From the NCBI GenBank assembly GCA_937139155.1, contig CAKZPI010000037.1, positions 68,195-132,194 on the forward strand: a stretch of 64,000 bases of DNA, given 5' to 3'. Below are positions 31,401-39,207 of the stretch, in pieces. The translations under genes and the position numbers were made by a program. The stretch is from an uncultured Flavobacteriales bacterium (GTDB taxonomy: Bacteria; Bacteroidota; Bacteroidia; Flavobacteriales; JBLHRE01). The notes beneath the pieces were generated by a model. That model made no database searches. It saw only the letters and a program-made list of their open reading frames with translations, and was not told the origin of the DNA. Numbering within the stretch: the first letter of the stretch is position 1; each line of letters starts with the position of its first letter.

Positions 31401-31964
31401 ATGTTTAAAACAATACCCCTTATTTCAGCAGGGATGCTAGTGGTCACATCCCTATTTGCACAAAATGTATCAGATAGTACCCATTTGGACACCTTTCATA
31501 TTACTTTGGTGGATACCAATTTTATCGAGCTTTCAGACGGTGATATGTTTGTGAAATTCAAAGACTCATTGCCGGATGGCTATTATATTTTGGATTGTTA
31601 CGATGATTTTGGAGGATTGTATCGAACCTATGAGATTAAATTTATTGAAGGATTACGTCAAGGGAAGTTTATCTCGGATGGTTGGGGCGCTAGGTCGACA
31701 TTCACTTATACCAACGACACATTGCAAGGCCCATTTTACGTACAAAACAGAGGAAAGCCCCCGTATATGTATGGGGACTATGTGAATGGAAAAAGACATG
31801 GGCTTTGGACCATTCTACCGTTTACTACACAGAATTCTGATGGAGACATGGTTAAGGGAATACAAATTTTGGAGTATAACCAGGGTGTGATTGTTAATCG
31901 AATTTTGATTCCGGCAACCTCCAGAAAAGTAGAAAGGTTTCTTGAGAAGTTGTATTGGGATTAA
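31401..31964 (+). CDS. Exported MORN-variant repeat protein (YwqK-like), putative immunity of cassette A; likely start ATG 31401
   Basis: Signal peptide MFKTIPLISAGMLVVTSLFAQ; repeats EGLRQGKF / NDTLQGPF / NGKRHGLW. Confidence 0.65.
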   Translation: MFKTIPLISAGMLVVTSLFAQNVSDSTHLDTFHITLVDTNFIELSDGDMFVKFKDSLPDGYYILDCYDDFGGLYRTYEIKFIEGLRQGKFISDGWGARSTFTYTNDTLQGPFYVQNRGKPPYMYGDYVNGKRHGLWTILPFTTQNSDGDMVKGIQILEYNQGVIVNRILIPATSRKVERFLEKLYWD

Positions 31965-32157
31965 GAGTGAAGCTTTACGGTGTGAATCGGAATGCTCAAT
32001 GGCAATCCTAAAGGATTAGATTTTTTCTTTTTCGAAGAACCTGTTCTTTATAAAAAGTGGAGTGTCTTAAATAAGGGAAGGGTTAGAAAAAGCTCTAGTT
32101 GGCAAAAGAAAACTTAATTAACGCAAAAAGGAAAATAGACTGCCGCTTCAGCAGTAA

Positions 32158-32247
32158 CGAGCTAGGAGCTTTCTAATATCTAACTATAAGGTATATATTC
32201 CCGGCACAAAAAGTTATGTTCCATATACTGAAAAATCAAGAGATTGA
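32158..32247 (+). pseudogene. C-terminal remnant of a JAB-like toxin gene
   Basis: RARSFLISNYKVYIPGTKSYVPYTEKSRD* resembles the tails of ORFs 34619 and 36241; its TGA overlaps the next ATG (TGATG). Confidence 0.6.
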
Positions 32248-32927
32248 TGATATTCTACCTTCAAGTTATAGGTCTTCTTTTATGCATTTGTCCAAATTTG
32301 GCTGCCCAGCCAAACTTGGAAGTTAAAAGGGGTAAGGACTCATGTGAATTCTTGGTTTTTGATGGTCAAATTTGGGCTGCAAGAGCCTTGGAATGGGACC
32401 AGATAACCGGAAAGGATAAGATCATCAAGGCTCAGGAAGATAGTTTGTGGATTGCGGCAAATGAAAACAAACGGCCGGCATATTGCATCGCGCCAGATTC
32501 AATAACCCAATTATTTAATGGATATGCGATGCCCTACATTTATGAGAACATAAATGATAGTAGCTTAAGGGTTGCAACGCAGTATGATTTTGAAAGGCTT
32601 TGGGGGTTTGAAAGGGATTCCTTAAGAAATTATGAAGACTATGTGAGAGGGGGTGTCTTACTGTTTTCATCCGATTCATGCTCATTTTATAGGAAGGGAT
32701 TTCAGTATTATAGGGATACAACAGGTCATTATAAAATGGGTGAAATTAAAAGTGTGGATTACTGGTCAATATCCGAATATATAGAATCCTATGACCCAAT
32801 GTTTAAAAGAGATGCACCAATTTTAATCCAGGTGGTATTAAATGGATGTTGTGCGCGGCTTATTGATGAAGATATAAACCCTAATATTGGCTATCCGGTT
32901 AGGCTGATAAAAAAAAGCTCAAACTGA
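32244..32927 (+). CDS. Exported FISUMP (Fib_succ_major)-like protein 1
   Basis: Signal peptide; DGQIW, W..A.....PAYC, LFNGYA, YWS, GYPVRLIKK. Confidence 0.7.
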   Translation: MMIFYLQVIGLLLCICPNLAAQPNLEVKRGKDSCEFLVFDGQIWAARALEWDQITGKDKIIKAQEDSLWIAANENKRPAYCIAPDSITQLFNGYAMPYIYENINDSSLRVATQYDFERLWGFERDSLRNYEDYVRGGVLLFSSDSCSFYRKGFQYYRDTTGHYKMGEIKSVDYWSISEYIESYDPMFKRDAPILIQVVLNGCCARLIDEDINPNIGYPVRLIKKSSN

Positions 32928-32993
32928 CTTTTGGTTTTATTTGTCATCCGTCCTATCACCTAAGACTATGAGCTAAATCACTAAGTTTAGCCT

Positions 32994-33135
32994 GTGAATA
33001 CAAACCTAACGTATCCAGCCCAAATTTGCGGCGAAAACCTCTACAAATACGAAGCCGACTCAGGCGACTACAACTCCCCTTACCGCTTCAACGGAAAAGA
33101 TCTCGGCCCGGAAACTGGCAACTATTACTACGGAG
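32994..33135 (+). pseudogene. RHS cassette B: truncated N-terminal/core stub
   Basis: GTG start; MNTNLT...NLYKYEADSGDYNSPYRFNGKDLGPETGNYYYG, homology to 36241 ends at 33135. Confidence 0.8.
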
Positions 33136-33513
33136 TAAGCTCAAGGCCCAAAGCTACCCTTGGAAGCGGTGCAGGTCCTTCCCTTAAAGTCCTACGTGGA
33201 AAAGAACCGTCCACAGCTTTTGGAGCTGACCAGCGCAAAAAAAGACAGTCATATGCTCTTTCCGAAAGGTGAGAAGACCCGTTTTAGTTCGGTAACAGGA
33301 AGTATTTTAAAGAGGTTGAAAATCCCGCCCCATACGGGGTTGAGAAATCATACGGACATGGATAATCTGTATCAGATACGCATCAACAGGATAGCCCTTT
33401 GGCTGAATCAGTACAACCTGAGAGAAGTGCAGTACAAGGCTGGTTACAGGAGCTTGCAGAGCTTAGAGACTTTTGGCAGGGAGGCCCTGGAAGAGCTCAA
33501 AGACTGTAGATAA
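33136..33513 (+). pseudogene. C-terminal remnant of a tyrosine recombinase (XerD-like integrase)
   Basis: QIR.....WL.QYNLREVQYKAGYRSLQSLETF resembles the Bacteroidota integrase tail QIRASVI..WL..YNLRQVQY.AGH.YISSTE.Y; His and catalytic Tyr positions read Y and F; N-terminus absent. Confidence 0.65.
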
Positions 33514-37146: not shown

Positions 37147-37151
37147 AGGTC

Positions 37152-37733
37152 ATGTACTACAGTAACATTATTATGTGCTTTCTCACTATTTCACTGCTGT
37201 TGAATCTTGATAATAAGTGTAACTATATAGTCACAGGGAGTCAAAAATGGTCAACTACGGATATCAGAGCAAAAGTGTTTAATAATGGCGATACAATTTT
37301 GTATGCCGACTCTGATAGTTTGTGGCAAAGAGCGAATCTAAAAAAGCTTCCGGCATGGTGCTATTCGAAGGATGGAAGAAGGGTTTTATATAATAGCTAT
37401 GTGGTCTCCGATAATCGATCAATTTGCCCAGAAGGATATCGGATTCCAACAAATAGAGACTGGGCATTACTTTTAAATGAGAATGGTGGGCCTAATTTAG
37501 CTCCTTCAAGATTTTTGAATACAGGCCGTGACTCGTGTTCAGAATTTTCTATCTACCCGACTGATTCAAGAAGCGTTAATGGTAGTTATGAGTTTGAAGG
37601 ATGTGCCGTTTTTTGGTCAAGTACTATGGTGAACTCGAGGTATTCTTATATTTTCATGGCTGAGGATTTAACTCTTACGTCTCAAACGCCTGATGGTACT
37701 GGGTGTGCAATAAGGCTGATTAAACGGAACTAA
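37152..37733 (+). CDS. FISUMP (Fib_succ_major) domain protein 3, putative immunity of cassette D
   Basis: Clearest copy: GSQKW...F.NGD.I..A...W..A...PAWCY...LYN.Y.V.D.R.ICPEGYRIP...DW..L ... FWSST ... G.AIRLIK; 5 bp after the toxin stop. Confidence 0.82.
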   Translation: MYYSNIIMCFLTISLLLNLDNKCNYIVTGSQKWSTTDIRAKVFNNGDTILYADSDSLWQRANLKKLPAWCYSKDGRRVLYNSYVVSDNRSICPEGYRIPTNRDWALLLNENGGPNLAPSRFLNTGRDSCSEFSIYPTDSRSVNGSYEFEGCAVFWSSTMVNSRYSYIFMAEDLTLTSQTPDGTGCAIRLIKRN

Positions 37734-37866
37734 TAACCCATGCTTTGTGCGTATTTAAGTTTTTCAGGCCACTGATGTTTAGCCCTAGCAACCCTCAAGA
37801 AGGTAACCAGTAGCTTGAGTGCGGTCACTGCTATACCTATGATGCTAAATTCTTTACTTTTATGAC

Positions 37867-38691
37867 ATGCAGAGAATAGAGACAGGCAACTATTACTACG
37901 GAGCTAGGTACTACGACCCGAAAATCTCTGTTTGGCTTTCTGTGGACCCGCTGGCGCATAAGTATCCGAGTCTTTCGCCTTATAACTTTACTGAGAACAA
38001 TCCGATAATGCTTCTTGACCCTGATGGTCGGTCCAGCAATCCTATCTATGATTTAGATGGAAACTTTTTAGGTACAGATGATCAGGGCTTGCAGGGTGAA
38101 GCGCTTGTTATGCTTCCAGAAGATTTCTCGCAAGGAATGTCTCACGCCGAAGCCAAGGACAAAAATTTAGGGCTAAGTGCTTTACATCTTGACAATAATG
38201 GTGACTTTCAGGAAGGTAGCGGTGGATTGGATTATGACCGATTAGCTGAACACAATAATGGATTGAGCGATAGACCTGATTATGATGGTGTAGTTACATT
38301 GGAGGAAGCGCAAGAATGGAGAAAATCTGGAAATGGGGAGCCTCTTTTTGTGGATTTTTCAAAATTTAAATTTACATCAAGCAGTTTGGATGTTGGTGAC
38401 ATAGGCGAGAGCGGTGAGCAGTATGTCAACTTTTTTAGCAGTTTTAATATACATAGTGGTGATGACAACGTAATTTGGAGACCAGCTTCAGATGAAACAC
38501 TTTCTGATGTATATGGTACAGTGAAAATAAAATTGCTTAATCGAGATAATGGAACTGTTATAATTCCTCCATTTAATAATGCTGGTCATTTTGATATTTA
38601 TAATTTTAGGGGGTGGAGGAAATTACTTCGTGGATCAGGGGACGATTTCGGTTTTATTGGTTATGGAAAAGGTAAGATAAATCTTAAATAA
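37867..38691 (+). CDS. RHS cassette E: RHS core (from 37879) plus C-terminal domain of unknown activity
   Basis: ETGNYYYG...DPDG; CT begins NPIYDLDGNFLGTDD and contains DG.VTL.EA..W...G.GEPLFVD. Confidence 0.8.
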   Translation: MQRIETGNYYYGARYYDPKISVWLSVDPLAHKYPSLSPYNFTENNPIMLLDPDGRSSNPIYDLDGNFLGTDDQGLQGEALVMLPEDFSQGMSHAEAKDKNLGLSALHLDNNGDFQEGSGGLDYDRLAEHNNGLSDRPDYDGVVTLEEAQEWRKSGNGEPLFVDFSKFKFTSSSLDVGDIGESGEQYVNFFSSFNIHSGDDNVIWRPASDETLSDVYGTVKIKLLNRDNGTVIIPPFNNAGHFDIYNFRGWRKLLRGSGDDFGFIGYGKGKINLK

Positions 38692-38715
38692 TGTTTTGCC
38701 ATAGACCTCTAAATT

Positions 38716-39207
38716 ATGGATAAAAGTTTAAAATTATTTATCGAATTATTAGTTTTTACTGTTTTAGGGTGTTCAAACGGTCAGCATGCTATTATTGGAG
38801 ACCTTAAGGTTGAGGAAGAAAAATCTTACCGAGTTGGATTAATTGATGTCCATGAATTCAAGTTATATACAGAACAGCTTAGTTACTCTGAAATACTTGT
38901 CTACCCTGAACCGAAGCAAGGCTATTACACAACCAAATGGAAACCCAATAACTGCGACTCGTTAATATTTAAATCGCTTCGTGGTCAGGTTGACTACAAT
39001 TTGTCAGCAAGTCCAGGTGCTGATGAAGGTATTGGCATGCTTCTAGAAAACGCTGAAGATAAGCCCCATCAATTTCTAGTCGCAGGGTACTACAAGGTTT
39101 TAAAGGATGCGAGAAGTGATCAGGTAAGACTGTATGACTATGTTTATCTCATGGATACTGTGAATAGAAGATTTTGGCAAATAGATCTTTCTAAGCAATA
39201 TTTATAA
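38716..39207 (+). CDS. Lipoprotein, putative immunity of cassette E
   Basis: Lipobox VLGC; 24 bp after the toxin stop. Confidence 0.65.
   Translation: MDKSLKLFIELLVFTVLGCSNGQHAIIGDLKVEEEKSYRVGLIDVHEFKLYTEQLSYSEILVYPEPKQGYYTTKWKPNNCDSLIFKSLRGQVDYNLSASPGADEGIGMLLENAEDKPHQFLVAGYYKVLKDARSDQVRLYDYVYLMDTVNRRFWQIDLSKQYL

Follow-up and report, generated by a model that had tools for sequence, protein, structure and literature searches.

Where does a toxin act when the small gene behind it, in the position of an immunity gene, encodes a protein that appears to leave the cytoplasm? The question is raised by a 64,000-nucleotide stretch of DNA from an uncultured Flavobacteriales bacterium (assembly GCA_937139155.1, contig CAKZPI010000037.1, positions 68,195 to 132,194), hereafter the window, in which a map of the open reading frames (ORFs) reveals a one-directional row of orphan Rhs C-terminal toxin (CT) cassettes at 30.6-39.7 kb. 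Some of these toxins carry a JAB domain, and JAB/MPN enzymes are known as intracellular isopeptidases. The original prediction for this locus was that all five small genes in the immunity position encode exported proteins, that immunity sits where the toxin acts and that the toxins are envelope-acting. In this study, we assign the locus, by its sequence, to the Rhs polymorphic toxin cassettes of the Tox-JAB-1 class, and we give a probability of roughly 60% to the following reading taken as a whole: the array consists of orphan Rhs toxin/immunity cassettes, its JAB1 toxins damage the envelope and are countered by exported FISUMP immunity proteins, and its main use today is to store spare tips and to provide standing immunity.

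Two of the toxin tips, CT-C and CT-D, match the Pfam family Toxin-JAB1 (PF15659) at 31.0 and 68.7 bits (cut-off 21), and these are the only two places returned by a search of the whole genome. The two tips are ~35-45% identical and both contain the motifs ADNTNVEW, H[SN]HP, PSG and GEWGD; over 121 Toxin-JAB1 homologues, the residues E, H, H, P, S and D are each at least 90% conserved. Together with a relic tail that resembles the C-termini of both, they are assigned to Toxin-JAB1, with the predicted catalytic residues E, HxH, S and D present in the intact tips. An AlphaFold (AF2) model of CT-D built from the 121-sequence alignment (predicted local distance difference test, pLDDT, 94.1; predicted TM score, pTM, 0.91) shows two parts, a beta subdomain at the N-terminus (residues 1-74) and, after it, an alpha/beta domain.

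To place the window in a wider setting, JAB1 loci were gathered independently of their partners: 7 from a 401-genome sample of the phylum, 6 from species-representative genomes, 3 from exact-protein look-ups and 52 from metagenomes. N-termini were scored with a home-made heuristic that combines the charge of the n-region, a 9-residue Kyte-Doolittle h-region, the -3/-1 rule and a PROSITE-like lipobox. The next gene carried a signal peptide or lipobox at 42 of the 46 evaluable metagenome loci. All four negatives are artefacts, two of them genes that continue a frameshifted toxin and two weak matches to the N-terminal part only. Among genuine metagenome loci, an exported partner is thus predicted in 42 of 42, and the genome loci, 12 more, were all positive. 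As a control, partners of the AHH nuclease toxin in the same phylum sample were scored and none bore a signal (0/8). JAB1 partners are exported and AHH partners are not; thus, partner location tracks toxin type in this phylum, and the expectation that immunity sits where the toxin acts holds as a rule that separates toxin types. The location of the partners suggests for JAB1 the behaviour of an extracytoplasmic toxin rather than that of a nuclease. Of 120 JAB1 homologues, 19 are standalone proteins (286-342 amino acids) that have a Sec signal of their own. For the JAB cassettes, the family-wide export of partners, the Sec-bearing toxins and the AHH control sustain the step from exported partners to envelope-acting toxins that the original prediction took. 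For cassettes A and E of the window the same step draws on the signal by itself, because these cassettes have no homologues.

The partners of JAB1 toxins are diverse. They form ~18 BLAST clusters with at least two unrelated folds, and profile comparison joins the three largest clusters into one probable superfamily, Imm65-like, some members of which have a weak TonB_C-like tail. A Pfam search of the partners of the other JAB1 loci returned no named family, Imm65 or otherwise, and just a weak TonB_C match. The commonest partner in Bacteroidales (loci L023, L024, L025, L026 and L030; ~285-297 amino acids) has a lipobox and a C-terminal region weakly similar to the TonB C-terminal domain (E 0.009); such a tail may point to a connection with TonB-dependent import or to periplasmic anchoring. 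On two metagenome contigs (L028 and L030; genes 2894-3982, 4001-5017 and 5007-5531), standalone 338-amino-acid JAB1 toxins with a Sec signal lie between two conserved genes: upstream, a 362-amino-acid signal-bearing protein of no known family, and downstream, a signal-bearing partner of 173-174 amino acids followed by further small exported paralogues. One copy of this type adjoins mobilisation genes (Toprim_2, Mob_Pre). At another locus (L021, G299:C1, 262-1392, minus strand), two complete and one partial paralogue of a 164-amino-acid signal-bearing partner stand in tandem behind a JAB1 remnant, which looks like a poly-immunity row.

Export of the partner is not in itself new for Tox-JAB-1, having been on record since Zhang et al. 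(2012; PMC3482391), who found Tox-JAB-1 strictly linked to Imm65 and described the signal peptide and lipobox of this partner as exceptional. In the same work a nuclease activity was guessed for the JAB toxins with a RadC-like clade favoured, the residues lining the ubiquitin-tail tunnel were argued not to be conserved in them, and the prokaryotic JAB domains known until then were all stated to be intracellular (Zhang et al., 2012). Our literature search found no later paper that mentions the Toxin-JAB1 family. What the present study adds is FISUMP, not Imm65, as the predicted partner fold, predicted partner export across families with at least two unrelated folds together with a nuclease control, and the genome-wide extent of the predicted exported partners.

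In the window, the array starts directly after a terminator-like hairpin located 3' of unrelated redox genes, and its cassettes follow one plan: the last ~60 residues of the Rhs core (GNYYYGARYYDPKISVWLSVDPLAHKYP…DPDGRD), then a variable toxin tip, then a small gene. The spacing from tip to partner is 4-25 nt, with measured gaps of 4, 5 and 24 nt and a stop/start overlap at 32244. The Rhs core end (TIGR03696) directly ahead of the tip is detected with E 7e-15 (34619), 2e-20 (36241), 3e-14 (37867) and 6e-18 (39295), while the core of cassette A, at 25.9 bits, falls under the TIGR03696 cut-off. All five small ORFs of the original prediction are present, each of them directly downstream of an Rhs-CT ORF or a CT relic. 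The features are as follows.

30645..31393, plus strand: cassette A, a degraded Rhs core end (GNYYYGARYYDLKISVNPLAHKYP...DPDGM) and a frame-broken CT, in ORF pieces 30645-30920 and 31082-31393.
31401..31964, plus strand: partner A, an intact gene for 187 amino acids with a predicted Sec type I signal of ~20 amino acids (cleavage LFA/QN).
32158..32247, plus strand: relic tail of a third JAB1 CT (cassette B), 30 codons reading SNYKVYIPGTKSYVPYTEKSRD and then a stop that overlaps the start of the intact partner B.
32244..32927, plus strand: partner B, an orphan immunity-position gene for 227 amino acids, with a predicted signal peptide, a FISUMP-like domain and 5 Cys in the mature part.
32994..33272, plus strand: Rhs core start of cassette C, interrupted by an insertion; the ORF reads ...YRFNGKDLGPETGNYYYG and then diverges.
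33586-33837 and 33834-34112, plus strand: YefM/Phd antitoxin and YoeB toxin, in the insertion that divides the core of cassette C.
34619..35488, plus strand: cassette C, Rhs core end (TIGR03696 E 7e-15; DPDGRD 34853-34870) and Toxin-JAB1 CT (PF15659 E 3.6e-7), with NxxxE at 35090-35113, HSHP at 35237-35248, PSG at 35264-35272 and GEWGD at 35333-35347.
35493..36140, plus strand: partner C, 215 amino acids, predicted Sec type I signal of 21 amino acids (VHS/QD), FISUMP-like domain, 6 Cys; it starts 4 nt past the toxin stop.
36241..37146, plus strand: cassette D, intact, Rhs core end (TIGR03696 E 2e-20; DPDGRD 36496-36513) and Toxin-JAB1 CT (PF15659 E 6e-19), with ADNTNVEW at 36766-36789, HNHP at 36928-36939, PSG at 36955-36963 and GEWGD at 37003-37017.
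37152..37733, plus strand: partner D, 193 amino acids, bona fide Fib_succ_major/FISUMP domain, 6 Cys; it starts 5 nt past the toxin stop.
37867..38691, plus strand: cassette E, intact, Rhs core end (TIGR03696 E 3e-14) and an acidic CT of ~215 amino acids.
38716..39207, plus strand: partner E, 163 amino acids, a probable lipoprotein (…FTVLG/C, Cys19) with a Glu in the h-region.
39295..39621, plus strand: terminal Rhs core remnant (TIGR03696 E 6e-18) with a short CT stub and without a partner gene.

No Pfam family matched CT-A or CT-E.

The partners of the three JAB1 cassettes (32244, 35493 and 37152) are paralogues, 27-33% identical and with three invariant Cys. The gene at 37152 passes the cut-offs of both PF09603 (58.8 bits against 33.9; E 1e-15) and TIGR02145 (44.9 bits against 41.65; E 2e-11); 32244 and 35493 individually lie under the Pfam threshold for PF09603. 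A joint profile of the three recovered 7,405 proteins among 1.84 billion representatives, and the top matches checked are bona fide multi-domain Fib_succ_major proteins. The mature partners B, C and D have 5-6 Cys in ~200 amino acids, the genome median being below 1%. From these sequence features, the three are best described as single-domain proteins, rich in Cys, of the FISUMP (C-type-lectin-fold) superfamily. The Fib_succ_major family has been described with a lipoprotein signal and probable extracellular disulfides, and Fib_succ_major/DUF1566 has been placed among the proteins of C-type-lectin fold that diversity-generating retroelements target (PMC5758913).

We also considered whether the trio could be a divergent Imm65 and rejected this identity. 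With the Bacteroidales partner clusters serving as a proxy for Imm65, an hhalign comparison of the trio profile with the common JAB1 partner clusters (cl1-cl4) gave probabilities of at most 0.6%, and an hmmsearch with the trio profile matched 0 of 53 other JAB1 partners. The lipobox, a feature of Imm65, was not found in the FISUMP-like partners, which have type I signals or, in 37152, a hydrophobic N-terminus alone.

The favoured reading can be put as a sequence of steps. Each partner would be an immunity protein that binds its matching JAB1 domain and blocks it, either in the periplasm or at the cell surface. Since the immunity partners are exported, JAB1 would be a zinc hydrolase, putatively an amidase or isopeptidase, whose damage falls on some component of the envelope and not on DNA. 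As its inhibitor, the FISUMP scaffold, tolerant of much sequence variation, may have been recruited in place of an Imm65-type lipoprotein. With two decayed toxins whose partners are intact and no adjacent full-length rhs, the array may now be mainly a reservoir of spare tips and standing immunity. A broader proposal, which we advance tentatively and at somewhat less than even odds, is that Toxin-JAB1 as a family is a JAB/MPN-fold group acting outside the cytoplasm: in the periplasm, a zinc amidase or isopeptidase that arrives through Rhs or plainly by Sec would cut an envelope component (a stem-peptide or cross-link bond of peptidoglycan, or an envelope protein linkage) and be countered by at least two unrelated exported inhibitor folds including FISUMP.

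Several observations weigh against this reading, starting with the export signals. All export-signal calls in this study are heuristic predictions. Among the window partners, clear Sec type I signals are predicted for 31401 (MFKTIPLISAGMLVVTSLFA, then QN after the cleavage site), 32244 (MMIFYLQVIGLLLCICPNLAA, then QP; TTG start and an n-region without a basic residue) and 35493 (MKGLLIVLTLLLLLRPALVHS, then QD). The lipobox call of 38716 (...LLVFTVLG/C) is plausible but imperfect, failing the strict PROSITE rule because of the Glu in the h-region. At 37152, only a 12-residue hydrophobic stretch (IIMCFLTISLLL) is present, with no basic n-region and no -3/-1 cleavage site, and this N-terminus may represent a signal anchor or else a signal in decay. 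Export of 37152 is supported indirectly by its two clearly signal-bearing paralogues, by its match to Fib_succ_major, a family described as extracellular, and by the 6 Cys in its mature part. The claim that all five partners are exported is thus partly borne out, with clear predicted signals in three and less certain calls for the other two. There is also no wider family to lean on for two of the five: partner A belongs to no family and its homologue search gave the query and one insignificant match, and for partner E neither a family nor, among 5.8 billion proteins, a homologue was found.

How unusual five out of five is depends on the background. Heuristic positives make up 33-39% of 2,431 crude gene calls of the genome, a background against which a full score of five has p = 0.004-0.009. 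Among other Bacteroidota Rhs cassettes, a small sample whose cores were located by phmmer, ~11 of 19 partners (58%) were positive, and against this baseline p is ~0.07 (0.58^5). Since exported partners are common in Bacteroidota Rhs cassettes, five out of five in one window is unremarkable and constitutes weak evidence. Across the toxins of this genome, ~18 of 20 partners are signal-bearing, lipoprotein or membrane proteins (p roughly 0.002, binomial, against the 58% baseline), which indicates a trait of the organism's whole arsenal and not of the JAB cassettes alone.

The remaining difficulties concern the partners' role, the fold and delivery. We infer the putative immunity function of the FISUMP-like proteins from gene position alone; no close single-domain orthologue of them was found elsewhere, and a homologue search with partner C returned the query alone. 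For the CT-D model, the best Foldseek matches are AMSH, RadC (2qlc), BRCC36 and CSN5 in the PDB and phage JAB, MPN, RadC and metalloprotease entries in BFVD, all of them weak (E 0.015-0.2, TM 0.3-0.54). The modelled fold is consistent with JAB, and a fold search of this kind cannot split a peptidase-type JAB (AMSH) from RadC, a putative nuclease clade. Neither the toxin profile nor the partner profile had a significant match among PDB sequences. Translocation could be the task of the conserved beta subdomain at the N-terminus of the CT (residues 1-74). As to delivery, 19 Rhs core matches were found genome-wide by TIGR03696 profile search, on seven contigs. The sole long Rhs (contig C9) has a different core end, and the only matching core with upstream YD sequence (contig C17) is truncated. 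No ORF of more than 800 amino acids lies near the array and no full-length rhs lies in the window. For these reasons, the array toxins may never be made. A parent full-length rhs with the core type of the array was not found in the assembly, a draft so fragmented at these repeats that absence is unproven; since the assembly breaks at Rhs repeats, with contigs C17 and C33 beginning inside cassettes, the parent gene may be unassembled.

These delivery problems lead to the alternative that fares best, which is that the locus confers immunity only today: the array would be a decayed relic with unexpressed toxins, and selection would keep the exported partners as a defence against the toxins of neighbours. 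The frame-broken toxin of cassette A and the 30-codon remnant in cassette B, both with intact partners, fit this explanation, as do the split core of cassette C and the lack of a full-length rhs in the window or, with the core type of the array, in the assembly. On the other hand, CT-C, CT-D and CT-E are intact open frames with preserved catalytic motifs, and the parent rhs may be missing from the assembly only. We regard the explanation as possible though rather unlikely, and it concerns present use and is compatible with the inference of an envelope target.

An alternative that bears on the target itself is that the toxin is caught by the exported partner, at the cell surface or in the periplasm, ahead of its passage through the inner membrane, with JAB1 acting in the cytoplasm, for example as a RadC-like nuclease; immunity location would then be uninformative about the target. 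RadC (2qlc) fits the CT-D model as well as AMSH does, the ubiquitin-tail tunnel residues are not conserved, as argued by Zhang et al. (2012), the N-terminal beta subdomain (~74 residues) could mediate entry, and the weak TonB_C-like C-terminus of the largest partner cluster would suit an import block. Against this stand the standalone JAB1 toxins, which are themselves Sec-exported, and the signal-less partners (0/8) of a true nuclease toxin, AHH, in the same phylum, which mark cytoplasmic immunity as the norm for cytoplasm-acting tips there. We also know of no described case of periplasmic interception immunity for Rhs or contact-dependent inhibition (CDI) nuclease toxins, and we count this against interception, which we consider improbable.

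Finally, it is very improbable that the downstream genes are merely ordinary small secreted proteins or lipoproteins, abundant in Bacteroidota and uninformative about the toxins, because, even though signals are common in the genome's genes (33-39%) and in the phylum's Rhs partners (~58%), FISUMP proteins elsewhere are surface or secreted proteins of unknown role and partners A, B, C and E, with no homologues in the searches made, offer no cross-check of role, the genes are tightly coupled (toxin and partner are 4-5 nt apart or overlap at the stop and start codons), the FISUMP-like family occurs behind a JAB1 tip three times with a divergence comparable to that of the toxins, the contrast between JAB1 (42/42) and AHH (0/8) partners is sharp and one partner has been kept after the loss of its toxin.

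Outside the window, the genome has six further toxin-cassette sites (contigs C17, C33, C9, C13, C45, C1 and C46) and two Rhs core types, GNYYYGARYYDPK… and YRYGFQGQE…RMHDPRIGRFF. Tips with HExxH motifs occur at C17:3870 and C33:331, a LysM domain at C45:3282, and Gly-rich hydrophobic tips paired with membrane partners at C1:166673 and C13:133377. A Pfam search of ten other CTs of the genome returned the one LysM match and nothing else. These tips (HExxH, LysM, Gly-rich hydrophobic) fit an envelope-directed arsenal. The genome is rich in type IX secretion system (T9SS) components, with 97 T9SS C-terminal sorting domains, and a second large polymorphic toxin starts with a Sec-like signal (contig C46, 2,347 amino acids). 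Three type VI secretion system (T6SS) markers, VipB, TssD and Phage_GPD, had no match in the genome; the sensitivity of these models for the Bacteroidota type is doubtful, and absence of a T6SS is not claimed. The Pfam model VipB (TssC) matched 10 of 381 genomes of the phylum, none of them in the window's own class, and probably misses the Bacteroidota type; TssD matched no control.

The insertion in cassette C is ~1.4-1.6 kb long (33136-34714) and splits the Rhs core, which resumes at 34619. Of its toxin-antitoxin pair, YoeB is a clear Pfam match (YoeB_toxin, E 3e-21) and the antitoxin match (PhdYeFM_antitox, E 6e-7) is, at 29.5 bits, slightly under the 29.8-bit cut-off. No Pfam family matched the upstream 117-amino-acid ORF (33160-33513). 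A YefM/YoeB-like pair of similar kind occurs within the cassette array of contig C33 (4897-5405).

If JAB1 is an extracytoplasmic amidase or isopeptidase, the nuclease guess of 2012 would be overturned. Periplasmic action, if true, would bring a new enzyme class into the repertoire of envelope-targeting antibacterial toxins and indicate that the Bacteroidota envelope has a vulnerable bond not recognised so far. From the contrast between JAB1 and AHH partners comes a simple rule, one that can be tested, for assigning uncharacterised toxin tips to a compartment. FISUMP in the immunity position suggests that one branch of this very large domain family, which has no known function, acts as a protein inhibitor.

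It is useful to set the locus beside systems that are better known. The array resembles the enterobacterial orphan rhs-CT/rhsI modules of the C-terminal displacement model in its tandem core-end fragments, each with a variable tip and an immunity gene, and in the decay of some toxins while immunity genes stay intact. Those modules, however, sit downstream of rhs genes, whereas the array of the window has no adjacent parent rhs and its partners all appear to be exported. The T6SS pairs Tse1/Tsi1 and Tse3/Tsi3 consist of peptidoglycan hydrolases with periplasmic immunity proteins. They share the logic proposed here, with the immunity protein exported to the compartment where an envelope-degrading enzyme acts and neutralising it there, as would be the case in the window. 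They differ in having an NlpC/P60 or muramidase fold where the window has JAB; the carrier in the window is Rhs, and no T6SS marker matched in the genome (sensitivity for the Bacteroidota type being unverified).

Like Fib_succ_major/DUF1566 proteins (PMC5758913), the FISUMP-like partners have the domain, a predicted N-terminal export signal and conserved Cys, in a fold that is a binding scaffold tolerant of variation. Unlike them, the window partners are single-domain proteins of ~190 amino acids in toxin cassettes, with a C-terminal motif VRLIKK and no retroelement nearby. The Tox-JAB-1/Imm65 pairs (Zhang, de Souza, Anantharaman, Iyer, Aravind, 2012, Biol Direct 7:18; PF15659) share with the window an Rhs-borne JAB-like CT with the NxxxE/HxH/S/D motif, restriction to Bacteroidota and a small exported partner downstream. 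They part from it in two respects: the partners in the window are of the FISUMP/C-type-lectin fold with predicted type I signals and are not Imm65-type lipoproteins, and in place of the nuclease guessed in 2012, the evidence of the survey and of the AHH control favours a target outside the cytoplasm.

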